From the IMG/VR virus record IMGVR_UViG_2645728091_000017, positions 1 through 23,397 of that record: DNA of 23,397 bases; one strand, 5' to 3'. Shown here one piece after another: positions 1 through 23,397 of this stretch (the first letter of the stretch is position 1; every line of letters begins with the position of its first letter). The notes under the pieces were generated by a model, which was not told the DNA's origin, ran no database searches, and saw only the letters and a program-made list of their open reading frames with translations. Both the position numbers and the translations under genes were made by a program. Origin of the DNA: a virus. Its lineage: Duplodnaviria; Heunggongvirae; Uroviricota; Caudoviricetes.

Positions 1-717
1 ATGCTGATTGTATCTGTTCTCAAATGCGGTAAAGAATTTACCCCCAAACACGCACAATGGCTGCATAGCCAATTTAAAGGCATACCTTCAATTTGCTTAA
101 CTGATGCTGGAAGTATCCCTGGTGTTGAAACCGCACCGTTAATGCATAACCTTCCAGGTTGGTGGTCTAAGATTGAGCTTTTTAATCCAAACCATCCGGT
201 AATAGGTGATAAGGATCTGCTTTATTTTGACGTTGATGTTGTCATAACTGGTGATATCAAAATCTTTGATGCGGCGAAAGAGTTCACTATGCTGCGTGAG
301 TTTAACCACCCTTCCAGGGTTAACTCATCCATTATGTTCATTCCTGCGTCTATCAAACAATATGTTTGGGATGCGTTCTGGACTGACCCCGAAAAAAATA
401 TGCATGAATGCCAAACAGAAGATAAATGGGGTGATCAGGGATTTCTGGGCAGCGTCATGAAACCTGTATTGTGGCAAGATATAATTCCCGGCTCTGTTGT
501 TAGTTACAAATGCCATATAGCCACACGCAAAATGATAGGTTACAACCCTGACTTGGCATCAGATTATGCTACTGGCAAAGTTCCTGATGATGTTTCAGTT
601 GTATGTTTTCACGGTAGTCCTCGCCCATGGCGAACAGGGTTCAGTTGGGTTCCTTCCTTTTCTGTACGCGATACCCTGTATGGTAAATTCAAAAATTTTA
701 AACTCAGTTTGAAGTAA
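1..717 (+). CDS. Hypothetical protein, AT-rich moron; possible DxD-motif glycosyltransferase-like enzyme (speculative). May be 5'-truncated by the window edge
   Basis: 238-codon ORF on the strand opposite the late operon, visibly lower GC than the structural genes, followed by a strong intrinsic terminator. Contains LLYFDVDVVITGD (D-x-D-like). No family recognised with confidence. Confidence 0.35.
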   Translation: MLIVSVLKCGKEFTPKHAQWLHSQFKGIPSICLTDAGSIPGVETAPLMHNLPGWWSKIELFNPNHPVIGDKDLLYFDVDVVITGDIKIFDAAKEFTMLREFNHPSRVNSSIMFIPASIKQYVWDAFWTDPEKNMHECQTEDKWGDQGFLGSVMKPVLWQDIIPGSVVSYKCHIATRKMIGYNPDLASDYATGKVPDDVSVVCFHGSPRPWRTGFSWVPSFSVRDTLYGKFKNFKLSLK

Positions 718-758
718 TTTTTTTCAGTTGTTCTATAAGAAAAAATTTCTATCCATCC

Positions 759-789
759 CGCGCCACATCTGATGTCGCGGTTTTTTTTT
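759..789 (+). terminator. Rho-independent terminator downstream of ORF 1..717
   Basis: Imperfect GC-rich hairpin CCGCG(CC)ACATC-T-GATGTCGCGG at 759..780 followed by a T9 run at 781..789. Confidence 0.6.
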
Positions 790-1193
790 ACAGAATACCC
801 CCCTTACTAACGATCCACAAACACCGCCTAAAATTTAATTTTTCTTTTATTTTCTGTGAGTTGTAATTTTACGCCGATCCCTCACAGATCCTTTTTACTG
901 AAAAAAAATGAAATTTCTTTCAATCATTTCAGTTTCTGTTCTCCGCAAAGCCGCCAGTAATGGTGCGGTCTGGCGCTCTGGTTTGTAGAAAAATAAAACT
1001 GAAAAAATTTCCAGATCCAGAAACCGCAGGCGGGTGCGGTGTAGTGCCGTTTTTGTCTGCGAAAGATTTATTTTGTCTGCATGTGGCTACCTCAGAGCGT
1101 CGCTGTGAATTTGATCTTATTGCGGTGTCGCAGTGGTTTCCCTAGTGTTGTCCCGCCTGCTGAGAGCGTTCTGTGCGGTCTGGTGGTGGGTAC

Positions 1194-1215
1194 AAAAAAA
1201 CCCGCACAATGCGGG
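1194..1215 (-). terminator. Rho-independent terminator for the minus-strand operon end
   Basis: On the minus strand, hairpin CCCGC-ATTGT-GCGGG followed by a T7 run (plus strand shows AAAAAAA then CCCGCACAATGCGGG), about 40 nt past the stop at 1258. Confidence 0.55.
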
Positions 1216-1257
1216 TTAAGGTGTGTTCAATTCATATCAACCGATATAAGAACGTAG

Positions 1258-1590
1258 TTACTGACAGGCTTTTTGTCCAATGTAGTATGCAATTGAGCGG
1301 TCAACTATAGGGGCCATATTTGGATCTGGTGCCGAGTTATTCATCTGCTCGATGGTCTCACCGTCTCCAAGATATTTAACTGTCCCGGCAGTACAGTCGT
1401 ACAGCCGCTTTGAATATGATGTTCCAGAAGGCCCCTTTCTTTCGGTTGTTATAGTAGCCATGCTGCCGTCGCGAGTCTTATCTAAAATCGTGTAACTAGC
1501 CTTCGTATCTGTTGGCACATAAACAACCTCAGCCGCAAACACATTGAATGAAACTGCTGCTCCTACAGCTAATATAATGAAATTTTTCAT
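1258..1590 (-). CDS. Small secreted or periplasmic protein of unknown function (moron at the distal end of the tail operon)
   Basis: Internal Met gives MKNFIILAVGAAVSFNVFAA-EVV, a typical Sec signal peptide, preceded by an AGGA/AGGG Shine-Dalgarno-like stretch. Mature part about 90 aa with two Cys. AT-richer than neighbouring genes. The ORF track's longer N-terminus (to 1650) lacks signal-peptide logic. Confidence 0.45.
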   Translation of the reverse strand: MKNFIILAVGAAVSFNVFAAEVVYVPTDTKASYTILDKTRDGSMATITTERKGPSGTSYSKRLYDCTAGTVKYLGDGETIEQMNNSAPDPNMAPIVDRSIAYYIGQKACQ

Positions 1591-1680
1591 ATCCCTATTC
1601 CTATCATTTGAGTATGCAATAATCCTATCAAGGAACTGAGAAAACGACAAACCTCGCGTTTTGTGGGCTGTCTGGAATGG

Positions 1681-3384
1681 TCAGGCAATGATGTTCTGGT
1701 ACTTGCTCCGGGTCTGTCCGGCCTTTGTCGCCGTCTGGGTAAATGCTCCGGCATTGGTTGGCGTACCAACACTGGGGTGCGAATGGCTTGCGCACTGCTG
1801 CGCCAGTTCTGCCAGTAAATCAATGGTGTCCAACATCATGGTCAGCGTGTTTATACTCTCACTGCCGATATGGACGGTTGGCCCCATAATCTGCTGACCG
1901 CCCGATGCCACCGATTTGCGTAATGCAGCAATCTTTTCAGTCAGGGTTCCCCCCACATCAACATCTACGGCTCCCGCCACATTAGTGGACTGTTTCCCGA
2001 TTATCTCAGTTTCATCATTCCCTTCAATACTGGCCAGCCTGTTACCTTTCACCGCCTGGCTATAGTCACCAGCACTTACCTGCTGGATGGCTCCGGCCAG
2101 CAGTGTGGCGGTTCCCAGTACCGTGGTTTTATCCGTGGCTTTCACCGTGGTTTCACGGCTGACCAGTTCGCGCTGTTCCGTATCGGCTTTTACGGTTCGC
2201 GCCATCGATGTTTCACTGATGGTCTGATCGGTCTGCCTTACCCAGTCACCCGCCTGAGTCACCCTCTGAGATACTTCTTCCCGCTGCTGCTGTAATTGCT
2301 CACCGGGTTTAACGTCCGGCAGGCTGGTACCATCCGGCAGCGTCTGCCTGATAAAGGGTTTATCCGGTCTGCCCCCCGTGAATGCAACCTCAACCAGCGT
2401 CCCTTCTGGCGGAAACTGAAACATACCCGAATCATTCCCGGCCATCGGTACCGGCAACGGCACCGCTGAATAAACAGGCGTCTGATTGTCCGGGTTTCCG
2501 TCTGCGTCAAGCAGCTGCACGTCCACGGCGTAACGTGGCCGGAAGGGATCGGCAAAGTTACCGCTTTTTACCGGCTCTGAATGCGCCACGACTCTGGTCA
2601 TCTTTGGCAAATGAAGCCCGGATGCCAGTTCCGGGTAATGGCTTTCAATCTGCCGTTGCGCCGGTGTTTTCTGCAAAGGTTTACCCGTTGCGCGGTTTCT
2701 CGGCGTCCATGTGATCGCCATCGTGTCATTCGTCAGGTGAACTTTAGTCACGCGTTCACCGTTCATCTCCACCCCTGGCCGCATAGTCTGGATCACTGGT
2801 AATGTCACAGAGTTACCGCCAGCAGCCCCCTGGCTGAACTCTGACGGGATTTCTACAGGACGACCGGCAAACAATGACTTTTCTGCGCCGCCGACGTAAA
2901 GCGAACCATCAGGCAACTGGTACCAGATGTAATCCTGGATACTGAACGCCCTGCCCAGATTGTTCAGCAACTGATAACCAGTACCGTTATGGGTAAAATG
3001 TGGGATGGGGGTATCGCTGTACTGTGCATCAGGCACACTGACTGTGATCCCGCTGTTTTCTTCCAGCCAGCCCGCAATTTCACGCAAAGTCGGGTGTTGA
3101 AACGAACATGGCCACATCCTCTCAAACACACCTGCCAGCTCACGAATGAACAGACGCTGAAAACCGTTTTCAGCGGGCTGCGATCGCTCCACATACCCCG
3201 TAAACCAGCGCAAAAGCAGATCGGTATACCCCACATCCAGCCGCACCAGTTTTCCGGTGTAATCGGTTGTTGTCTCTGCGGTGATGAAGCCCCGGCCGCA
3301 GCTGTTCAGCTCCAGTACCAGGCTGGCATCCACCAGGTGAACTTCATCCGTTGAAAGATAAAGGCGTTTTACTGGTTTCATCAT
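1681..3384 (-). CDS. Late-operon protein, 567 aa, function unassigned (position suggests a tail or baseplate component, possibly gpD-like hub)
   Basis: Long ORF with high GC; its start overlaps the stop of the upstream gene at 3384. No diagnostic motif recognised; assignment is positional only. Confidence 0.5.
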   Translation of the reverse strand: MMKPVKRLYLSTDEVHLVDASLVLELNSCGRGFITAETTTDYTGKLVRLDVGYTDLLLRWFTGYVERSQPAENGFQRLFIRELAGVFERMWPCSFQHPTLREIAGWLEENSGITVSVPDAQYSDTPIPHFTHNGTGYQLLNNLGRAFSIQDYIWYQLPDGSLYVGGAEKSLFAGRPVEIPSEFSQGAAGGNSVTLPVIQTMRPGVEMNGERVTKVHLTNDTMAITWTPRNRATGKPLQKTPAQRQIESHYPELASGLHLPKMTRVVAHSEPVKSGNFADPFRPRYAVDVQLLDADGNPDNQTPVYSAVPLPVPMAGNDSGMFQFPPEGTLVEVAFTGGRPDKPFIRQTLPDGTSLPDVKPGEQLQQQREEVSQRVTQAGDWVRQTDQTISETSMARTVKADTEQRELVSRETTVKATDKTTVLGTATLLAGAIQQVSAGDYSQAVKGNRLASIEGNDETEIIGKQSTNVAGAVDVDVGGTLTEKIAALRKSVASGGQQIMGPTVHIGSESINTLTMMLDTIDLLAELAQQCASHSHPSVGTPTNAGAFTQTATKAGQTRSKYQNIIA

Positions 3385-3929
3385 TAACCCAAAGCATCAT
3401 TGACGGGCTTCAGCACTTTGCGTTCAAACCACGTCAGTTTTTCTTCATCTTCTCCGGCAGACTGGCCACCGTTCTGTCCCGCACTACCGGCAGTCTGTTT
3501 TTTTGCGGTCGTCTTACCTGTTGCCCTGGCCTCTCGCTTTTCCTGCACGCTGATATGTTCCGCCAGTGTGAATGTCACCAGCCAGGACATTTTCCCGTCC
3601 TGCTGGGGTGCATCCAGCATTCCGCTGAACGTTGCTTCACGAAAGTTAACAGCACGGGCAACTTCATGCGCCACACGGTACTTCTGACGATTACCACTGG
3701 CATCGGTCGCACTGGCCAGCTCAAAAATACGCTTCAGAATTTCAGGCTGTTTAAAAGGTATTTCACCGCTGATCCGCAGTTCCTTTCCCTTTGCTCCCTG
3801 CTCTGATTTTGTTGTGGCGCTGGTCTGGCCGGACTGATCTTTATCCTGAAATTGCTGTGAAACAGTCACCCGCATGTTTTTCAGCTGGATGGCCTCGCCA
3901 TTAAGCGCCAGTGTCGGGATCGAAGTCAT
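3384..3929 (-). CDS. Late-operon protein, 181 aa, function unassigned (possible tail protein)
   Basis: ORF translationally coupled to both neighbours; charged and Gln/Ala-rich C-terminus. Family not recognised. Confidence 0.45.
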   Translation of the reverse strand: MTSIPTLALNGEAIQLKNMRVTVSQQFQDKDQSGQTSATTKSEQGAKGKELRISGEIPFKQPEILKRIFELASATDASGNRQKYRVAHEVARAVNFREATFSGMLDAPQQDGKMSWLVTFTLAEHISVQEKREARATGKTTAKKQTAGSAGQNGGQSAGEDEEKLTWFERKVLKPVNDALG

Positions 3930-4662
3930 GAATCATTCCCTTTATTCCATCAAGATTATCGCCAACCAGCATCATGGCAGCGGTGTAAACGGCAGACTGC
4001 TGCGGAATGTCCTTCATCAGTTCCAGTAACGTGGTGCCGGTATCTCCGCTGGCAGTAAAAACCCACGCTCTGGCACTCTTTCCCTGTAAATCATTCAGGC
4101 CGCTGGCCACATCTCTGATAAGCTGGTCACGCAGCTGCGTGAACTCGCCCAGCTGTTTTTTCAGCCCTTCGATATCAAACCCGGCACACGCCGCCTTTTG
4201 TGCCTGGCTGATTGCCATAGCAGATAAAGCTGCCCTGCTGGTTGGTACAGACAGTGGAATGGACGCAGGTAACGCTGCGGCGGCTTTCGCCGGGATCTGC
4301 ATCTTTTCAATAGCCAGCGCTGCGAAGGATTGCGCCAGCCGTTTTACCTGCGTGAATGCCGGGGCGGGGAAAATCCCGACCAGGTTATTCAAGCTGGCCA
4401 TAAAGTTTTCCTGCGTCTGTCCGGTGACCATCATAATCACCACGTCCGCATTCCCCCCCGTTCCGGCCAAGCGTTCAGCAAGATAGCGAACGGCATTAAC
4501 CGGGCTGAGATATGCCCCGTTCGCAGTCTGCTGTCCCAGCCCATAAATCCACGGATGCGCAGGGACGATCGAACAGTTCAGCGCAGCAACAGAATCCGTG
4601 AAGGCCAGACGTGCTTCACGCCACATTTCCAGGCACCTCCGGCCACACAATTTCCGGTGCAT
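3901..4662 (-). CDS. Late-operon protein, about 240-253 aa, function unassigned
   Basis: ORF immediately downstream of the tail fiber assembly gene in the same operon. True start may be the internal Met of MWREARLAF. Family not recognised. Confidence 0.45.
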   Translation of the reverse strand: MHRKLCGRRCLEMWREARLAFTDSVAALNCSIVPAHPWIYGLGQQTANGAYLSPVNAVRYLAERLAGTGGNADVVIMMVTGQTQENFMASLNNLVGIFPAPAFTQVKRLAQSFAALAIEKMQIPAKAAAALPASIPLSVPTSRAALSAMAISQAQKAACAGFDIEGLKKQLGEFTQLRDQLIRDVASGLNDLQGKSARAWVFTASGDTGTTLLELMKDIPQQSAVYTAAMMLVGDNLDGIKGMIHDFDPDTGA

Positions 4663-5207
4663 CTTCCGGTTGAATACGGTTCAGTAAAACGCGGTATTTT
4701 TTCCATGCGGTAAGCAGCAGTGCTTCTTCTTCGGTCGCCATGTCTAAATCAACGGCATCCTGCAATGTGGCAATGGCGTCACTGGCCTGTTTAAGCAGTC
4801 TTTTCTTTTCGGCATCTGCCTCGCTGACTAATGCAATTCGCATGGCCTCCGCATCATCCACCCACCCACGCCTTACCATTCCATTTTTGCCAGGCATTAG
4901 CCGGTGCTAACGTGGTTGTCCCTTCCGGGTACCCCCCTGGCTCGATGATCACCACTTCATTACCGTTTTCTGTATCAAACACCACCTCACCACGATGATC
5001 CTCACGGGAAATCCATCTTTGCTTCTCTGAATCAAAAATTGCCACAAACCCCGCTTTGATTACCGGTGGTTTTATTGTGGTGCAGTTGACTGGCAGTCCG
5101 GTATGCGCAGGTATAAAAGCATCACCCGAACCAATAAATTCATTCGTGTCTGAACGCAGGTTATAAACAGTAACTGTTTGATCGGTTTCACTCATTTTAA
5201 AAGTCAT
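4616..5207 (-). pseudogene. Tail fiber assembly protein (Tfa/gpG-like) split by a frameshift
   Basis: N-terminal part (4854..5207, MTFKMSETD...QKWNGKAWV) and C-terminal part (4616..4897, ...DDAEAMRIALVSEADAEKKRLL...) lie in different frames and together resemble one Tfa. The junction is in the repeat TGGGTGGGTGG (minus strand, about 4857..4868). Confidence 0.6.
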
Positions 5208-6781
5208 TATGCGAGTCTCACTATGTAGTTAAATGCAATATTCTTAACTGTCGTTTCTGTGTTACCCGACGCGGCGACGCTAATCGTGTGACTATGTGCG
5301 CCAATTGCTACGGTATGAGAGTGAGCGCCAATACCTACGGTGTGATTGTGTGCGCCAATAGCTACGGTGTGCGCATGGTTTCCCGCCGAACTTGTAGTAG
5401 TCGCGCCCTTATCCTGTCTGGGTACACCATAATCCGAACCGCCAGACTGCACACTAACGGCAAACCCGACAGTGTGCGTATGCGCCCCCGTTGTATTTGT
5501 CGTTTTCGTGCCATAGTCAAATGTGCTCGCCGTTTTAGTACCGTAATCAAATGAGGATGTTGATTTCGTCCCCAAATCGGTACTGGATGCACTGGCTGTG
5601 TGTGAGTGGGATTTATTACCATCATCTTCATAGGACAAAACTTCGCGGCCGTCTGGTTTCCCTTTGATTGTCCAGCGGCGCATGTCAGGAATAACACCCG
5701 ACGGATACGCGATGGCCAGTAAAGGATATGCAACCTTATCAAAAGATTGTCCCTGCATAATTGCCCACCCTACAGGCGGGATATTCGTTGGCCACGGAAG
5801 CGGCACACCAACCGGCAGAACATCACTACGACTTAAAACCGCCAGTTCACCCAGTTCCAGACTTTTTCTGGCTTTCGCTTTGTCGTTAACATCAGCAAGG
5901 TTTGCATCCTTACGCAAAAAATCGCTGCTGGCCTGCTGTTCTCCCAGGCTACCTTTTGGCCGTAGATCCGTGATGTTGCCATCCACATCAATGCTGGCCA
6001 CCGCAAACACATAATGCTGAACCCCGTTCTGAACGTAATCAGCAAGATTTGCAGCCACCGTGATTTTGCTCTGCACATTCCAGACACTGGTCAGCGTCCC
6101 TGTCCAGCACACATCCAGCCAGACTTTTACCGGCTTTGTCGTCACCGTAATATTCTGATTCGCAGCCAGTGACGCACGAAGTCCAGCCACATAACCCGTG
6201 CCTTTCGTGACAAAAAACTGATTGCCGGTTTTGGCTACCAGATACCCGTTACCAAAAAACGCAGCCGCACCATAGATATCCATATTTTCAAGGCGCTGGC
6301 GCTCATCCATTCCGGCCATACGCGCGGTGAAATCAATCTGCCAGGTCTCAGCGGGCGTATTAATCCCGGTTTCCGTTTGTGCGCCGTTGTACTCCATCAG
6401 AAACGAGCGGGTCAGCACGTTCCCCTGTTGCCCTTCTTTTGTTTTCAGTTTCTGCTGTGATGGTGCATGGACAATCATTGCCAGCGTACCGCTGGCCTTA
6501 TTGAGCAGACCGATCCAGTTAAAACTGAAATCACCCACATCTGCGCCCAGCACTACGGAATAAACCACCCCGTTTTCATTCACCACACCTGTGCGGGTAA
6601 CAGACTGCCGGTGAACAATCTGTGCTGTCGGGGGCAACGCTTCATTGCGATCAACAGGTGTATCCGGGTTTAAATCCGGCACACTGGCAAAAACAAATTC
6701 GTCCAGTAGTACCGGTTCACCCGTTGCGCCCTGCTGTGCTTTCCAGTTTTCAAACGCCAGTGTGATGGCTGTCTGTGACAT
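5207..6781 (-). CDS. Tail fiber protein (P2 gpH-like N-terminus; C-terminal tip with His-x-His repeats)
   Basis: 524 aa. Position between the baseplate genes and Tfa, with a 1-nt stop/start overlap (TAATG) with Tfa. C-terminus carries DYGTKT(A/T)S(T/S)F repeats and GAHxHTV(A/G)I repeats. Confidence 0.8.
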
Positions 6782-6791
6782 AAAAACCTCC

Positions 6792-7385
6792 TTACAAACT
6801 CGCGCTGAATATTGCGCTGCGGGCTTCCGTCCCTGCTAACGTCGCCGGGTAAACCATATATTCCCCCTGATCCCATCCAGCCCTGATAACCAGGCTTTCA
6901 GACGTGATCACCTCAAACTGATAACGGCGGCATGTTCGCCCGTACTGGCGGATTATCTGGATCAGCAGCTGCGTGTTGTCTGCAATCTGGCTGTCTGTAA
7001 CCCGAACAAGAATTACATCCCAGTCGATATCCGGTTGCCGTTCTAACAGCTCCACATAACCAATCCCCAGCCGTTCAAAGATATTGATAAACCCCTCTAC
7101 TGAACCGGCATCCCGCGCATTCACAAAGGCAAAAGCCACGCGTTTGCGGAACAGAGGCAACGGTTCACCATCAAAACGGGTTATATCCCGGTCATAAGCC
7201 AGCAGGTTCAGTAATGCCGGTGTACACGTCAGCGGATCAAACTGATTCGTTGGCCAGGTAACCCAGCCGTAAACCTCAGCCCAGAACCGCCGCGCCGTTT
7301 TCAGCAATTTCCCCGGTTCGCCTTTATTCATCCAGGAAGGCAAGACCATCCCGGCCAGCTTTTTCATGAACTCATTCATTCTCAA
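6792..7385 (-). CDS. Baseplate protein, P2 gpI-like tail protein I
   Basis: About 195 aa, located between the baseplate J-like gene and the tail fiber gene as in P2 (J-I-H order). Confidence 0.55.
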
Positions 7386-8558
7386 TATTCACCGTCAGTG
7401 ATTTCAGACGCGGCACGCTAAGTTCACTGGTAATGTCTCCCAGCGAAAATGTCAGTGATTCTGTCTGCGCAAAGGTTTTATGAATTTCCCGCCCCAGTTG
7501 CGAAAAGGAAAACCGTGAATATGGCCACGTCTTTCTGACGTCATAATCAGCATTTTCACGAAAGGCACAGCGGATCATGTTCTCAATGCCGCCCTTCAGC
7601 GTTTTCACCTCTTCGTCACTGAAGTTGTTTAGATTTTTGACATAAACAGTGACGGCCAGATCGTGAAGCGTTTCCGGCATGGGATAACACTGCATATCAT
7701 CACCGTGCCCGTGATGTCCCAGCGTGTTGATATAGTCATTCACCGCATCCACGAACGGCGCTGATGCCACCCCACTGTCCAGTAATAAAAAGGCGTTGGC
7801 TGTTCCTGGCCCCCTCGGTGCTTCATGCTCAAAGAAAATCCGATCTATACTCAGCCCGGCAACACTGGCGATCATTGAGCGATAGACCGCATCAGTGTGG
7901 TAATTCCCCACAAGATTAAACTGATTGCGGCAACGCTCGCGCAGTTCATCATCACTTTCCTCGTCAGCCCCCGGTACGGTCAGCCAGTTTTCCTCACTGA
8001 CCACATGGCTGATACCACTGACCGCCACCGGCAGAATGCGGTAATATCCAGGCGCAAGGTTATACGCGCCCCCGGTGCCGGTGGCTTTCACCGGCAGTAA
8101 TGCGCTGGCCGCACCGGAAGCGATCACCACATCCTCAGTGGTGGCCACCTCATAAACTCGCCCGTTAATGCGTTCTGTCTGGATAACCGTCCCGGCTTTC
8201 ACCGTCACCACAGCTTTTGCATCTTCTTTGAAGAAGCGGATCACCCCATGTGCAGCGCTCGCCGGTTTTGCCGTGACGTTCACCGCCCAGGCCAGCAGAC
8301 GCAACATGCTCCCGCTGGCTGTGGCCACAAACATATTGGCCAGCACGGTTAACACCAGAACGTCTTTAAGCCACATCACCGGGGCAGTCACAATGGCGGT
8401 GATTAATCGCCAGAACGGTGACATTCGGGATGTATTGGTGATAATTCCCTCATCTGCTGCAATTGCATTGAAGCGTTCCCGCACTTCGGCTTCCGTTACC
8501 GGCATACCGCTGTCTTTCACCACTTCTTCAAAATCAACCTGCGGTTTTTCCGTCATAA
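7372..8558 (-). CDS. Baseplate J-like protein (P2 gpJ / Mu gp47 family)
   Basis: About 395 aa with family-like composition, upstream of the gpI-like gene. Start is probably MTEKPQVDFEE, directly abutting the upstream stop; the ORF track extends it to 8610. Confidence 0.7.
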
Positions 8559-8882
8559 ATCCACCTGCGCAGAGATCCCGCCAAAATCGTATGTACTCGC
8601 GGTTACCCACAGCCGCTTCTGACTTTCTTCACTGATTTCCACCGTACCCGGCACAATGCGTTCATCATCTTCAATCAGTAATTCCATGCGGGTAAAAATA
8701 TCCGCTCTCATTGTCGGGCTACGTTCGGCGATTAATTCCGTCGCTAACCCGCTTTCAATAATGGAATGAATAATGTCCTGCCCGATACTTTTTCGGTTAT
8801 TACATAATTCAGGTTCATTACCGGTATTCAGAACAAAGTCACCGCCCTGAATCAGCAAGTCGATATAGAGAACATTACTCAT
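8553..8882 (-). CDS. Small baseplate protein (gpW/gp25-like or DUF2590-like)
   Basis: About 110 aa between the tape measure and baseplate J genes. Start MSNVLY overlaps the tape measure stop (ATGA) with GGAG 9 nt upstream. Confidence 0.5.
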   Translation of the reverse strand: MSNVLYIDLLIQGGDFVLNTGNEPELCNNRKSIGQDIIHSIIESGLATELIAERSPTMRADIFTRMELLIEDDERIVPGTVEISEESQKRLWVTASTYDFGGISAQVDL

Positions 8883-17796: not shown

Positions 17797-18600
17797 TTAC
17801 AGGAAATTAAATTTACCCGCTTTTTCTGAAATCTTACGCCCCGGTGTACGGGTGGATTTATTACCCAGATCGTTAAAACGTTTAACGATATCTTTTGCAT
17901 TATCACGAATAGCCGCAAATTCTTCGGTATCGACCACTTCCGCAATGGTATCCACATCACCCTGAACATCATTCAGCTGATTTTCAATTTTGGCCACACG
18001 GCCTTCCAGTTCGTTTACCGCGTTGGCCAGCGCCTGTAACTTATCATCACCCTGCGCGGCATCATCAGGCGGCGTTTCATCTTCAAACTTTGGCTTAATA
18101 CCAAACAGTTTCTGCCAGTTCTTCATTCTTGCTTCCTGTTTAATTTTTCCATCACGGGAAATTACACAGCTGTAATATCCCTGCTTTGTTAATTTATTGC
18201 GCCGACTACTAAAGCGCAGCCGTGTGGTGCCAACGCTAGCAGGTGTATCTGCTACCGCCAGCCCTTTCAGGTAAGTACGTCCGCTACCACGCCAGTTCTC
18301 ATCCGGTTCAATCGAGAAGAACAGGAGCTGATCTTCATGGTTGGCGAAAATTAAACGCATATTCGGGCAAAGGCTGACATAAAGCCGCGCCAGTCCGTCA
18401 TCGCCATCATGCCAGGTGGCCTCCAGCACCTCCCCAAAATTACCGCAATCATCCTCGTGTTCTGGCCAGATCAAAGCGACATAGTGGTTATAGTCATAGG
18501 TTTCCCCCATATCGATAATCCACTGGCGTTTAATTTCTCTGCCGTCAACGGTATCCCCTTCGGTAGCAACACACAGCCAGTCAGTTTTTAAATGCGACAT
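17797..18600 (-). CDS. O: Capsid scaffolding protein, P2 gpO-like
   Basis: 267 aa; N-terminal VATEGDTVDGREI motif resembles the P2 O N-terminus; coiled-coil acidic C-terminal half. Confidence 0.85.
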   Translation of the reverse strand: MSHLKTDWLCVATEGDTVDGREIKRQWIIDMGETYDYNHYVALIWPEHEDDCGNFGEVLEATWHDGDDGLARLYVSLCPNMRLIFANHEDQLLFFSIEPDENWRGSGRTYLKGLAVADTPASVGTTRLRFSSRRNKLTKQGYYSCVISRDGKIKQEARMKNWQKLFGIKPKFEDETPPDDAAQGDDKLQALANAVNELEGRVAKIENQLNDVQGDVDTIAEVVDTEEFAAIRDNAKDIVKRFNDLGNKSTRTPGRKISEKAGKFNFL

Positions 18601-18761
18601 ATCCCCCCTGATTTATTCACCGACGCTGCAAATCAATTATTGCCAAATAAAACCACCACCGCATCACGCTTTATTCTGAACAGTTCGGTTATCACGTATT
18701 ACCGAACAGACGCGAATTAACACCACCGTTTTTTCATAACAGCCACGGCATAATTATCCGC
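18601..18761. promoter_or_regulatory. Divergent late promoter region between O and P, with a 7-bp perfect dyad GTTCGGT-N11-ACCGAAC at 18683..18707
   Basis: 161-bp intergenic region between divergently transcribed O and P, as in P2 where divergent late promoters sit. The dyad is read directly from the sequence; its function as an activator site is inferred. Confidence 0.4.
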
Positions 18762-20478
18762 ATGGCTAAATACTCAGAAGAACTAAAAGGCGTTGTCCGC
18801 GCACTTTATTTGCGCCGCTATACGCCAAAAGAAATTGCATCAGAACTAAATCTGCCGAATGCGCGGATCGTTTACTACTGGGCTGAGAAATACAGCTGGG
18901 CTGATTTACTCAGTTTTGAAAGCACAGAGGAGGCAATTGAACGTCGCTACCAGCTGCTGGCCAGCCGCGATAATAAAACCGATCTAGACCTCAAAGAAAT
19001 GGACATGCTGATTGCCCACGCCACAAAGCTACGTGCTCAAAGCAATAAGCATAAAGAAAAGATGGCCAGCGGCCAGAGTAACGGGCAGGCAGCTGCGCGC
19101 GACAGCAACAGCGATGAACCGCGCCCCAAACGCAAAAACAGGAAAAACGATATTTCTTCTCTGACTCAGGCGGATTTTGACACCTGGGCGGAAGAACATC
19201 TTTTTGAATACCAGAAACACCTGCGCAGGAACATCGGCCAGCAGGTCAGGAACATCCTTAAAAGCCGCCAGATCGGTGCCACCTGGTACTTTGCATTTGA
19301 AGCCTTTGAAAACGCGGTCATGACAGGCGATCCGCAAATCTTCCTGTCTGCCTCCAAAGTCCAGGCGGAATACTTCCGGTCTTACATCGTCAACATTGCA
19401 GAACAGTATTTTGGCATCACGCTGACCGGCAACCCGATCCGCCTCAGCAACGGCGCTGAACTGCGTTTTCTCTCAACCAACAAAAACACGGCACAGTCCT
19501 ACAGTGGCCACCTGTACTGTGACGAATATTTCTGGGTGCCTAACTTCGCCAGGCTTAACGAAGTGGCCAGCGCAATGGCCACCCATGACAAATGGCGTAC
19601 CACCTACTTTTCAACGCCCTCAGCCAAAACGCACCAGGCTTACCCGTTCTGGACGGGTGAAGAATGGAAACAGGGCAGCAAAAAACGCGCGGCCGCCCAG
19701 TTCCCGTCCTTTGATGAAATGCGTAACGGCGGGCGGCTTCAACCTGGCCAACATCGAGAAGCTGCGCAACCGCTACAACACCGCCACCTTCAACATGCTC
19801 TATATGTGCGTGTTCGTAGACAGCAAGGATTCCGTATTCAGCTTTTCAGACCTGGAAGCCTGCGGCGTGGAGGTGGATACCTGGCAGGATCACAATCCGG
19901 ACGCTGCGCGGCCATTTGGTGACAGGCCAGTATGGGGAGGATTTGACCCGGCACGCAGCGGCGATTTGTCGTGTTTTGTGATTATTGCCCCGCCGATGTA
20001 CGCCGCAGAGAAATTCCGCGTTCTGAAGGTCATTAACTGGAAGGGCATGAACTTCCGCTATCAGGCCAGGCAGATCGAACTCCTGTTTAAAAAATACAAC
20101 TTCACCTATCTGGGAGTGGACGTTACCGGTATTGGCCAGGGTGTTTTTGACAACATCCAGCATTTTGCCATGCGCGTGGCCGTCGCCATTCGTTACGACA
20201 TGAACACAAAAAATCAGCTGGTACTGAAAGCGGCGGACGTGGTGGAAAGTCAGCGTATTGAATGGGACAAGAACCTGAAAGAGATCCCGGCCAGCTTTAT
20301 GGCTGTACGCCGCACCACCACGCAAAGCGGTAACGCCATGACATTTGTCGCTGACCGCAGCCAGGACACTGGCCACGCGGAGGCGTTCTGGGCAATTACC
20401 CACGCCCTGCATAACGAACCACTCAACTACGAAAACAAACCGAAATCCCGCTGGGGTGTAAGGAAAGAGGCTGCATGA
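18762..20478 (+). pseudogene. P: Terminase large (ATPase) subunit, P2 gpP-like, interrupted by a +1 frameshift
   Basis: N-terminal ORF (18762..19922) is terminase-like up to ...SFDEMRNG, then reads a nonsense tail. The downstream ORF (19504..20478) becomes terminase-like from GFNLANIEKLRNRY. Junction is at GGCGGGCGGC (19728..19737); removing one G restores a single reading frame of about 570 aa. Confidence 0.8.
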
Positions 20479-20530
20479 GTAAAAAAACCGCTTCGTTAAG
20501 CGCAACCCGCGCGGCGATAAGTCCAAAAAA

Positions 20531-21535
20531 ATGAGCATCATCACATTCGGCAAACCGGAACCTGTCCTGACCACCGGCACGGATTACCGCGACATCTGGT
20601 ACGACAATGCCGCAGATCACTTTACCCAGCCGATTGACCGGCTGGCACTGGCACAGCTTATCAATCTGAATGGTCAGCATGGCGGCATCATCCACGCCCG
20701 GAAAAATATGATTGTGTCTGATTATATGGGCGGTGGCCTGACTTACGACCAGCTGGAAGCCGCAGCGTTTGACTATACAACCTTCGGGGATATTGCGATT
20801 GGCAAAATCCGCAACGGCTGGGGGGATGTGATTGCCCTGGAACCTTTACCCGGCCTGTATATTCGCCGCCGTAAAGTCAGGGACAACGCCACAGACCAGC
20901 CCGGCGATTATGTGGTGTTACAGGATGGTGAACCGCAGGTATGGCCGCAGGAAGATATCATTTTTATCAAGATGTACGACCCGCAGCAGCATATCTACGG
21001 GCTGCCAGACTATATCGGTGGCGTACACTCGGCATTGCTTAACAGTGAAGCCGTGATTTTCCGCCGCCGCTACTACCACAACGGCGCTCATACTGGCGGC
21101 ATTCTCTATACACGCGATCCCAGCATGACGGATGAAATGGAAGAAGAAATTGAACAGCAGCTGCGTGACAGCAAAGGTATCGGCAACTTCTCGACCATTC
21201 TGGTGAACATACCTGGCGGGGATGGGGATGCAATCAAGTTCATTGAAATGGGGGATATCTCTGCAAAAGATGAATTTGCCAACATCAAAAACATCAGCGC
21301 ACAGGACATTCTCAACGCACACCGCTTTCCCGCTGGGTTGGCCGGAATTGTCCCGCAGAACACCGCTGGCCTGGGGGATGTTGAAAAGGCGGAAAGGATT
21401 TACAAGAAAAGCGAAATAGCACCTATTCAGCGCCGATTTATGACTGCCGTGAACAACGATCCCGAAATACCGAAACGTCTGCACCTTCACTTTGATTTAA
21501 GTTACACAGAATCAACGGATAAGGATGCGGCATGA
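20531..21535 (+). CDS. Q: Portal protein, P2 gpQ-like
   Basis: 334 aa directly downstream of P on the same strand; size and composition match P2-family portal proteins. Confidence 0.85.
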   Translation: MSIITFGKPEPVLTTGTDYRDIWYDNAADHFTQPIDRLALAQLINLNGQHGGIIHARKNMIVSDYMGGGLTYDQLEAAAFDYTTFGDIAIGKIRNGWGDVIALEPLPGLYIRRRKVRDNATDQPGDYVVLQDGEPQVWPQEDIIFIKMYDPQQHIYGLPDYIGGVHSALLNSEAVIFRRRYYHNGAHTGGILYTRDPSMTDEMEEEIEQQLRDSKGIGNFSTILVNIPGGDGDAIKFIEMGDISAKDEFANIKNISAQDILNAHRFPAGLAGIVPQNTAGLGDVEKAERIYKKSEIAPIQRRFMTAVNNDPEIPKRLHLHFDLSYTESTDKDAA

Positions 21536-21585
21536 GGCGAAAAAGGCTAAAATCCAAGCATCATTTAACAGCTGGAGCATGGAAT

Positions 21586-21855
21586 ATGCGAGTTCTGAAA
21601 ATCGAATGCCCGGAATGCGGCTCAAAGGCTGTTATTCGTAAAACAAACCGGAAGCACCGGCAGATTGCGGATATTTACTGCGCCTGTTCAGATGTGGAGT
21701 GTGGCCATACGTTTGTTATGAATCTGACGTTCTCCCACACTCTCAGCCCCAGCGCGAAAACAGGTGATGCGATGGTTCAAGTCCTACTTAACAACTTATC
21801 ACCGTCTCAAAAACAGATGGCACTGGATTTACTGAAAGCCACACCCGCGGCGTGA
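21586..21855 (+). CDS. ogr: Ogr/Delta-family zinc-finger late-gene transcriptional activator
   Basis: MRVLKIECPECG...YCACSDVECGHTF gives the Cys arrangement typical of P2 Ogr / P4 Delta; GGAG 8 nt upstream. An alternative upstream start at 21532 overlaps the Q stop (ATGA) with AAGGA upstream. Confidence 0.75.
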   Translation: MRVLKIECPECGSKAVIRKTNRKHRQIADIYCACSDVECGHTFVMNLTFSHTLSPSAKTGDAMVQVLLNNLSPSQKQMALDLLKATPAA

Positions 21856-22005
21856 GGATATCTCCTGTTTGAGTCATCACTTATGCACAGAATGCTCTTT
21901 CTAGACCCATGACAGTGATCTCTGATATCTTTTCATTATAAGATCAGTGCGTTAAATTTTTTGCATTATATTATTACCTAAAATTGGTGCAGGAGATCTC
22001 CTAGA
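21856..22005 (+). promoter_or_regulatory. AT-rich intergenic region upstream of the cargo gene, bracketed by GGATATCTCCT (21856..21866) and the palindrome AGGAGATCTCCT (21991..22002)
   Basis: Sharp drop in GC after the ogr stop. Sigma70-like hexamers (TTGCAT at 21961, TAAAAT at 21979) are present but with non-canonical spacing, so the promoter call is tentative. Confidence 0.35.
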
Positions 22006-23043
22006 ATGTTTGGTTCAAAGCTTGTAACTAAACTGTGGGAAACCACAGCAGAAAAAGGTATTGGTGCTTTATGTAAGCCCTGGCAAATGCGTAGAGAGGG
22101 AGTTGCCAGTTTAGAAATGGAAAGAAAAAAAATGTTAGTTCTGGCTCAAACAGAGATGGATGTCGAGAACATAAAAAGCGGAAAAGCCATCGTTTCGTTA
22201 AATGATCTAAACAATCCCAAATTGATTTCATTAGAAAATAAACAAGAGTATGATAATTCAGGTTCAATGGAGCCTTACATAGATTTCGATAACTTAAAAA
22301 ACGCAGTAAGTACTCAACTCATTGCAAATGAAGTTCAAAAAGAAATAAACATTGCCAAGTCATTATTTGTTGCTGAAGAAATACTTTCTGTTGATCAGTC
22401 TGAGCCTACTGCTGAAAATATCGAAAATGATTGGTTGCTAAGGTGGAGAGATAGTGCTGCGACAAGTAGTTCTGAGAAGCTACAGGATTTATGGGGAAGA
22501 ATACTTGCAGGTGAACTAAAAAGCCCGGGGTCGTATTCATTAAGAACTGTTGATTTCATCAAAAACCTGACACAAAAAGAAGCAAATAAAATACAAAAAC
22601 TATTCTCTTTCCTCTTTCTTGATAGAATTATCAAGGGGGAAAAAGGTAGTTCTAAATTCGACAATGAATACTTAGATAATGAACTGAACTATAATTTTTT
22701 ATCTGAGATGCAGTCACTCGGAATCATTGCTGGGGTTGAGTCAATGGGATTAGCCTCAACTTTCAAGTCTCTTAGTGAAGAAACCTTTTTTTATTATCAT
22801 ATGTATAATGATAAAGTAATGCAGATTAAACATGACGATCCAGAGAAAGAACTTAAACTAAGGGTTTTAATTCTAACGCCACTTGGCCATGAGTTAAAAA
22901 GTTTATGCCCTGCTACAATTGATAGCATTTATCTCAATCATGTTATTGATGCGATTAAATCATTAGATTTTAAAGTTATCATTGGTGATTGCATACGTAA
23001 AGAAAATGGGGAAATATACTCTAAAAATGAAGTAGAAGTTTAA
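22006..23043 (+). CDS. AT-rich cargo protein of unknown function, 345 aa; candidate single-gene anti-phage defence or exclusion protein
   Basis: Long ORF in markedly AT-rich DNA between the ogr-like gene and a hairpin terminator. AGGAG 8 nt before the ATG. Contains NDWLLRWRDSAATSSSEKLQDLWGRILAGELKSPGSYSLRTVDFIKNLTQKEANKIQKLF, which I recall as DUF2806-like (unverified). Not a virion, lysis or replication gene. Confidence 0.7.
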   Translation: MFGSKLVTKLWETTAEKGIGALCKPWQMRREGVASLEMERKKMLVLAQTEMDVENIKSGKAIVSLNDLNNPKLISLENKQEYDNSGSMEPYIDFDNLKNAVSTQLIANEVQKEINIAKSLFVAEEILSVDQSEPTAENIENDWLLRWRDSAATSSSEKLQDLWGRILAGELKSPGSYSLRTVDFIKNLTQKEANKIQKLFSFLFLDRIIKGEKGSSKFDNEYLDNELNYNFLSEMQSLGIIAGVESMGLASTFKSLSEETFFYYHMYNDKVMQIKHDDPEKELKLRVLILTPLGHELKSLCPATIDSIYLNHVIDAIKSLDFKVIIGDCIRKENGEIYSKNEVEV

Positions 23044-23063
23044 AAACGTAAAAAATCATATCC

Positions 23064-23095
23064 CCCTCACTTTTATCAAAATAAAGTGAGGGTTT
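23064..23095. terminator. Hairpin terminator between convergent genes (possibly bidirectional)
   Basis: Perfect 10-bp stem CCCTCACTTT / AAAGTGAGGG (23064..23073 and 23083..23092) with a 9-nt loop, followed by TTT on the plus strand. Confidence 0.5.
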
Positions 23096-23193
23096 AAGAG
23101 ATATAGATGAATTTATAGTCAACTTACTATTAATCATCTTAAACACTATAACATTCGGCACCTTACAACTGAGATTATAGTATTGTCAATGAG

Positions 23194-23397
23194 TTAACAT
23201 TCCCCATCAGATACTGGAAAGGCCCCTGACCTTGTTTTTTTTAAATCTTTTCTAAGATCGTGTCGCATTTCTCCTGCAATCTCACCAATCCAGGCCAAAG
23301 CGATTGTTTTCTCGCGCTGGTCACTTTCGTACACATGGGCAATTTTGGCCAATAACTCAATGCGCTCCAGCTGTGCCGACGCTTCCAAAAGATCCAT
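23194..23397 (-). CDS. C-terminal fragment of a minus-strand gene continuing beyond the window (unknown function)
   Basis: ORF open to the window edge, ending ...PVSDGEC at 23194; convergent with the cargo gene. No family recognised. Confidence 0.3.
   Translation of the reverse strand: MDLLEASAQLERIELLAKIAHVYESDQREKTIALAWIGEIAGEMRHDLRKDLKKTRSGAFPVSDGEC

Follow-up and report, generated by a model that had tools for sequence, protein, structure and literature searches.

The locus considered here raises the question of what a solitary, AT-rich gene contributes when it stands directly after the late genes of a P2-family prophage, and whether it could protect the cell that carries it from other phages. 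The DNA is a 23,397-nucleotide sequence of a member of the Caudoviricetes (IMG/VR virus record IMGVR_UViG_2645728091_000017, positions 1–23,397), referred to below in its entirety as the window, and the gene (22006..23043) is the sole open reading frame (ORF) within a segment of foreign composition, or island, close to its right-hand end. In an initial annotation, made from the letters of the DNA and its ORFs, the gene was put forward as novel anti-phage or exclusion cargo, with a resemblance to uncharacterized proteins of the DUF2806 type. By its profile match the product is a bona fide member of DUF2806 (Pfam PF10987), and the gene probably encodes an abortive-infection or exclusion factor of the kind represented by Belisama and AbiAlpha; the anti-phage phenotype of the protein and the death or lysis of the infected cell are predicted from homology.

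Conservation of the DUF2806 Protein

The match to PF10987 scores 91 bits (E = 1.2e-25) against a gathering cutoff of 24.5 bits and aligns residues 109–313 of the protein with profile positions 11–220 of 221, so that the resemblance suggested in the initial annotation is borne out. The same profile is matched by all 59 of the homologs that were aligned. The NCBIfam model TIGR03899 is matched in part, over residues 108–201 only, with a score of 73.9 bits that lies below its cutoff of 155.65. There are 308 homologs of the window protein conserved over the full length; the family is conserved from end to end across about 340 residues, its N-terminal extension included, and contains 26 invariant residues. 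Characteristic motifs are KLWET..EKGIG..KPWQ.RREG in the N-terminal part and DDWLxRWRD and LWGRxLAGE.K.PGSYSLRT in the core.

The gene is maintained by selection and outlasts the decay of the phages that carry it. Compared with the allele in an Escherichia coli prophage of strain mip270_05 (locus L001), which is about 95% identical to the window, the ratio of nonsynonymous to synonymous substitution rates (dN/dS) is 0.076 (dN 0.018, dS 0.240), a value indicating that the gene is under purifying selection. The identical protein is found on 51 contigs from E. coli, Salmonella, and Citrobacter. In addition, the gene is intact in two decayed P2-like remnants, one in Cronobacter in which the terminase and capsid genes are truncated and one in Rahnella of which just ogr and a portal fragment are left, and the intact gene of the window itself sits in a prophage with a frameshifted terminase gene. 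That an intact cargo gene is kept by prophages which have lost the ability to package DNA argues for a benefit to the host or lysogen and not to the virion.

The protein has a predicted mass of 39 kDa and an isoelectric point of 5.1 and contains no transmembrane segment, the maximum Kyte-Doolittle hydrophobicity in a 19-residue window being 1.12. A membrane-anchored superinfection-exclusion protein was ruled out because such a hydrophobic segment is lacking, and the “membrane-fusion protein” labels carried by some database homologs are unsupported here. An AlphaFold2 model generated from the 59-sequence alignment (mean predicted local distance difference test score 78, predicted template modeling score 0.71) is confident for residues ∼105–345 and weak for residues 30–100. 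It consists of three N-terminal helices, a variable linker (residues 60–95), a long helix (residues 94–128), a helical core that contains the invariant motifs, and a C-terminal α/β region ending in a helix-helix-β-hairpin. A profile search of the sequences in the Protein Data Bank returned nothing even at E ≤ 10.

An Accessory Cassette in the gpA-gpQ Interval

The change in base composition at the stop codon of ogr, described in the initial annotation as an abrupt switch from GC-rich to AT-rich DNA, is confirmed by calculation. The island, 21856..23269, has a GC content of 0.340, as compared with 0.516 in 1..21855; windows of equal size elsewhere have a mean of 0.520 with a standard deviation of 0.028 and a minimum of 0.422, which places the island at z = −6.35. 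Along the sequence the value falls from ∼0.50–0.55 over the structural genes to 0.29–0.37 from about position 21950 onward, and GC at third codon positions is 0.28 in the 345-codon ORF as against 0.59 in the portal gene. The boundaries were located by BLAST comparison with a relative in which the island is missing (L002): homology breaks at 21855, the ogr stop codon, and restarts at 23270, a position that falls within the 3′-terminal part of a small convergent ORF. The left boundary is thus where the initial annotation had put it, at 21856, but the right boundary, placed there at 23100, lies ∼170 bp further on, at 23269. The 1,414 bp of foreign DNA replace ∼52 bp of the empty-slot relatives, and the last ∼25 codons of the small ORF have been swapped together with the island.

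The segment is accessory cargo exchanged as a cassette. Among 29 complete E. coli genomes that contain the portal-ogr backbone it is present in only 2, both of one strain lineage, and absent from 27; about 20 of the 29 give a two-piece match with a record span of 1,536 bp versus 2,898 bp, as expected where the island is absent. A survey of IMG/VR seeded with Ogr yielded 80 loci, 79 of which were scored as evaluable. About 70 of these (∼89%) have an empty slot, with 300–330 bp between the end of ogr and the end of gpA; in empty-slot phages, ogr and the small ORF meet or overlap at their 3′ ends, around a hairpin rich in GC. DUF2806 alleles with 89, 69, 63, 58, and 54% amino acid identity to the window protein fill it in 5 loci, a putAbiC protein in 2 (263 residues, AT-rich, minus strand; PF16872, E = 1.9e-12, with a weak PADLOC match to AbiP), an ISL3 transposase in 1, and two unknown ORFs in 1. 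The proposal that the island is variable cargo, to be recognized by comparing related prophages, is therefore upheld by the absences and by the differing contents of the slot. Overall the DUF2806 slot alleles span 54–96% amino acid identity, and a further allele with 71% identity (P0002) occurs in Citrobacter and other hosts.

Relative to locus L004, which carries P0002, portal and ogr are 95% identical in nucleotide sequence whereas the DUF2806 gene is just 70% identical, with synonymous sites saturated; the breakpoints vary among slot alleles, and in L080 the DUF2806 gene lies on the opposite side of the small ORF. By these sequence comparisons, the process is cassette replacement at a hotspot and not vertical divergence. 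The junctions of the island carry near-identical 10-mers, ATATCTCCTG on the left (21858–21867, plus strand) and ATTTCTCCTG on the right (23267–23276), forming repeat family D15; they match at 9 of 10 positions, and an equally good match was found in 46 of 5,000 shuffles of the junction windows. They are a possible microhomology for cassette exchange, seen in this single case.

The position of the slot is that of a published hotspot. In P2-like phages the interval between gpA and gpQ is a cos-proximal hotspot for anti-phage genes, the site at which old and tin are found in P2 (Rousset et al. 2022, PMC9122126). The island of the window is assigned to this interval because the gene order of L001, which continues past the end of the window, places the replication endonuclease gene gpA beyond the small convergent ORF, followed by CII, Fil, CI, and integrase; its content varies among close prophages and includes an Abi gene. 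The P2 cos consensus does not occur in the window, even when up to 3 mismatches are allowed, and adjacency to cos therefore follows from the interval as it is defined in the literature. The present backbone is already listed in the hotspot tables, both as “Ogr_Delta” alone (WP_089708991) and as “Ogr_Delta + putAbiC + hypothetical,” and one listed P2-hotspot arrangement ends in DUF2806 (PMC9122126). WP_089708991 is the ogr protein of the empty-slot locus L002.

The cargo described here resembles that of the published P2-like hotspot in occupying the same A-to-Q interval, in its presence/absence and cassette polymorphism, in its AT-rich foreign DNA, and in sharing the slot with an Abi gene, but in sequence the window protein resembles neither old nor tin nor any of the PADLOC models. 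The ESSI2-like lineage to which the window belongs also differs from P2 proper in having ogr and an apparently SOS-regulated small gene inside the interval, and its slot, ∼89% empty, is far below P2 in reported occupancy and diversity.

Relation to Belisama and AbiAlpha

The “novel” of the initial annotation does not survive comparison with the literature, in which a DUF2806 system has been validated, a link between DUF2806 and AbiAlpha has been noted in two papers, and DUF2806 appears in the table of P2-hotspot cargo. Belisama is a single-gene DUF2806 anti-phage system of the superintegron of Vibrio cholerae N16961 (Darracq et al., bioRxiv 10.1101/2024.07.02.601686). It protects against phages, is toxic when over-induced, and at high multiplicity of infection causes “strong and unrecoverable culture lysis” with no phage amplification; its homologs occur in 70 genera, and it has detectable homology to Abi-alpha (10.1101/2024.07.02.601686). 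Its presence inside a prophage has already been reported by DefenseFinder users.

Like Belisama, the gene of the window is a single gene with the Pfam DUF2806 domain that travels as a one-gene mobile module, but where Belisama occupies an integron cassette, this gene occupies a hotspot in a P2-family prophage from the Enterobacteriaceae. The likeness is measured through the shared Pfam domain and the Vibrio homolog P0110. P0110 is 36% identical to the window protein over 99% of its length and is encoded in a typical superintegron cassette array, so that its genetic context is the same as that of the validated Belisama. The V. cholerae DUF2806 proteins P0126 and P0143 are rare variants and are not demonstrably the Belisama reference.

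AbiAlpha (EF2833), a 272-residue abortive-infection protein of prophage 6 of Enterococcus faecalis V583, causes infected cells to lyse ∼10 min early, and similarity to PF10987 was seen by its discoverers (PMC6356687). It resembles the window protein in being a prophage-encoded, accessory single protein with no recognizable catalytic domain; it differs in its length, in lacking the ∼100-residue N-terminal extension conserved in DUF2806, in its Gram-positive hosts, and in its Picovirinae target. The Pfam Abi_alpha profile is matched by 8 of the 59 DUF2806 family members. For the slot allele that is 69% identical to the window protein (P0004), the match covers residues 150–301 with 29.4 bits, the cutoff being 29; P0002 reaches 25.7 bits across residues ∼150–301. 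These scores suggest that the window protein and AbiAlpha are related at the level of a superfamily and not by membership of one family. A 285-residue protein labeled “Abi_alpha” in the table of Rousset et al. was considered as a bridge and set aside, with an hhalign probability of 0.1 against the family and no match to Pfam Abi_alpha.

The family as a whole is rare, patchy, and linked to mobile elements, with 135 relatives among 100,044 species genomes distributed over many phyla; integron-like arrays of Xanthomonas and Stutzerimonas are among its contexts. In GenBank phage genomes no close homolog was found, the one match being a protein of a Sinorhizobium phage with 26% identity. A DUF2806 gene on IncX4 plasmids has been described as disrupted by an mcr-1-pap2 cassette (PMC8221240); it likewise belongs to the same Pfam family and to a mobile element of E. 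coli and Salmonella, but with 28% identity over 66% of the query it represents a separate, distant subfamily. In V. cholerae (L175/L176, 1–6017), a 338-codon DUF2806 gene directly follows a filamentous-prophage module (Zot/DUF2523) and a GIY-YIG ORF and lies beside matP, lon, and fabA; filamentous phages, or elements integrated next to them, may thus be a further vehicle for DUF2806 cargo. An Aeromonas veronii locus (L181) has two different DUF2806 genes within 4 kb, at 3478–4338 (286 residues) and 7001–8035 (344 residues).

Proposed Role and Alternatives

Taken with its family and its location, an anti-phage role is the best-supported reading of the gene and probably the correct one. A soluble DUF2806 protein would be made in the lysogen and, when a heterologous phage infects, would be activated by a phage product or by an effect of the infection. 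The activated protein would lyse the infected cell early or otherwise kill it while the invader is still immature, and the death of that cell would protect sister lysogens and hence the prophage. Speculatively, the N-terminal helices (residues 1–60) and the helical core (residues 105–200, with DDWLxRWRD, LWGRxLAGE, and PGSYSLRT) could form an effector or signaling part and the more variable, winged-helix-like C-terminal α/β region (residues ∼205–345) a sensor. An extension of this scheme, in which the enterobacterial clade constitutes a mechanistically new one-protein abortive-infection switch, is quite unlikely. Such a switch would have a fold without a solved counterpart (a helical core plus a winged-helix-like C terminus, lacking any nuclease, NADase, pore, or kinase module), would respond to a component of the phage, and would force premature lysis, for example by way of the holin or lysis clock of the invader.

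Several observations weigh against an anti-phage role. The DUF2806 ORF matched no family at E ≤ 1 in PADLOC 2.0, whose 2023 database is older than the Belisama report, and no PHROGs family, and the window protein gave no match to Pfam Abi_alpha (PF14337; cutoff 29 bits) even at E ≤ 1. The role proposed for the protein and for its enterobacterial clade derives from homology, and the Vibrio integron-cassette homolog that was compared, P0110, is just 36% identical. A scan of the plus strand upstream of the 345-codon ORF found no σ70 consensus promoter, so that expression of the gene in the lysogen is putative. Furthermore, the slot is a low-occupancy hotspot, empty in most relatives, and some distant homologs, such as those in Aeromonas L181, have ordinary chromosomal surroundings.

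If the gene is active, a prophage-borne representative from E. coli and Salmonella joins the DUF2806 family. The gene is no new category, since the family itself, the hotspot, and the general logic have been published. Belisama and AbiAlpha, the latter a distant relative of the family, have both been shown to stop phages, and the mechanism of the two is a question that such a gene could address: a well-understood P2-like prophage whose host is a model organism, and of which empty-slot and allelic variants occur naturally, would provide a convenient entry to the trigger and the killing step. An active gene would also mean that the same one-gene defense module moves between integron cassettes, the flanks of filamentous phages, and the hotspots of tailed prophages. 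Were the new-switch extension true, the tractable E. coli P2-like setting could reveal how the Belisama/AbiAlpha superfamily works.

Among the other explanations, the one that survives best, though it is unlikely, is that the gene is a moron without a defense function, whether a winged-helix regulator, a lysogenic-conversion factor, or a selfish, toxin-like addiction gene, at a hotspot that merely tolerates insertions; the alternative occupancy of the slot by putAbiC counts for the defense reading. A role in the lytic cycle of the prophage itself or in competition with satellites, as a lysis-timing accessory or an anti-defense or anti-P4 factor that is transcribed together with the late P-Q-ogr operon and not in the lysogen, is very unlikely. 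The gene does lie on the same strand as terminase, portal, and ogr and immediately downstream of them; empty-slot relatives have a hairpin after ogr (GCCCCCATTCTGGGGGC in L002) that this allele lacks, making read-through possible; an independent consensus promoter was not found; and AbiAlpha is a protein that acts on lysis timing. However, ∼89% of related phages are without the gene, which is thus dispensable for development, and it is kept intact in remnants that are unable to make virions. Moreover, in the L091 allele the post-ogr hairpin still precedes the gene, and the cassette brings with it a conserved AT-rich block from the upstream side, suggesting that the gene has a control region of its own. 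Finally, the very low GC content (0.34), the lack of a recognizable promoter, and the apparently defective state of the adjoining prophage would suit inert, hitch-hiking, H-NS-silenced foreign DNA with no current function, but this is extremely improbable in view of the dN/dS of 0.076 (at dS 0.24) against the L001 allele, the full-length ORF in all slot alleles and 308 homologs with their invariant residues, and the exact recurrence of the protein on 51 contigs of three genera.

Signals within the Segment and the Convergent ORF

The anti-phage factor proposed above would be expressed from a gene whose local signals, together with its neighbors, are listed in Table 1. The 345-codon ORF and the ribosome-binding site described in the initial annotation are both present. 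The hairpin said to terminate the transcript is a stable stem-loop (RNA folding energy −17.6 kcal/mol, z = −4.56) but not a canonical terminator: it is followed by three T residues, and a terminator scan did not call it, on account of the short T-run and long loop, and found no terminator. It is a plausible, though non-canonical, terminator. Palindromes of 12 nucleotides occur at the left junction (AGGATATCTCCT, 21855–21866) and across the ribosome-binding site (AGGAGATCTCCT, 21991–22002); sequestration of that site by the 5′ leader through these two palindromes was considered and rejected, as the fold is no better than that of shuffled sequences (z = −1.3). Scans of the island with Rfam and for tRNA genes gave no matches.

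Table 1. Coordinates of the segment, its signals, and the adjoining genes in the window
Feature	Position	Strand	Basis or description
Portal gene (gpQ)	20531..21535	+	Backbone gene before ogr
ogr/delta-like zinc-finger late activator	21532..21855	+	Pfam Ogr_Delta, E = 9.2e-20; phrog_603 transcriptional regulator, E = 1e-43
AT-rich cargo segment, 1,414 bp	21856..23269	.	GC drop, BLAST breakpoints versus L002, absence from most relatives
Ribosome-binding site AGGAG	21991–21995	+	Read from sequence; 10 nt before ATG
345-residue DUF2806 protein, candidate abortive-infection/exclusion factor	22006..23043	+	Uninterrupted ORF; PF10987 match
Stem-loop, possible terminator	23064–23092	+	10-bp stem CCCTCACTTT/AAAGTGAGGG, 9-nt loop, then TTT
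Conserved small phage gene, Tum/DinI-like	23194..23397	−	phrog_698, E = 5.9e-21; weak DinI family match

The small convergent ORF, which the initial annotation had suggested as a second component of the system, is a neighbor and not a part of the cargo. Its 3′ end (23194–23269) lies inside the replaced segment, but the ORF is present in empty-slot relatives as well, belongs to a phage family of its own, and is preceded in nearly all related loci, whether the slot is empty or filled, by a LexA box (CTGT-N8-ACAG) ∼25 bp upstream of its start. An example is TACTGTATGCATATACAGT at 10921–10940 of L001, the equivalent position lying just past the window end at 23397. The gene at the equivalent position in coliphage 186 is that of the LexA-controlled Tum antirepressor. 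By this analogy the small ORF appears to be a core SOS-induction gene and not a cargo partner, and a two-gene system comprising it and the DUF2806 gene was rejected since it is a conserved core gene found where the slot is empty.

The Host Prophage and Other Candidate Variable Sites

From its gene content the host element is a Peduoviridae prophage of the P2 family, of the 186-like ESSI2/Quadragintavirus type. P2-type capsid and scaffold genes are on the minus strand of the window and are followed on the plus strand by terminase, portal, and the Ogr/Delta zinc-finger gene; ogr is the final conserved backbone gene to the left of the island, and homology to empty-slot phages stops at its stop codon. 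The large terminase gene is broken into two overlapping frames (18762..19922 and 19504..20478) by a frameshift, 59 bp being missing near 19731 relative to two relatives with a single terminase ORF of 591 codons. The prophage is probably packaging-defective, unless the frameshift is an assembly error.

Further candidate variable sites were seen in the window and in its relatives. At the other end of the window, beyond the baseplate spike gene (1681..3384), positions 1..1650 form a second stretch of lower GC content (0.38–0.46) that contains a 238-codon ORF starting at the window edge (1..717, plus strand) and a 130-codon ORF with a signal-peptide-like N terminus (1258..1650, minus strand), neither having a Pfam match; this stretch could be a second cargo site or the junction between prophage and host. 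In L067, two minus-strand ORFs of 234 and 141 codons lie between the small SOS gene and gpA (4011–5133), the shorter of them with an N-terminal hydrophobic segment and both without a significant Pfam or PADLOC match; this pair is another candidate occupant of the hotspot. A second variable site contains nothing in L001 (15862–15864), a 594-residue P-loop NTPase in L002 (15402–17186), and a 186-residue bPH_3+SHOCT protein in L004 (15348–15908) and L005. It looks like another accessory hotspot, comparable with the cI-int hotspot of K139-like Vibrio phages (Rousset et al.).

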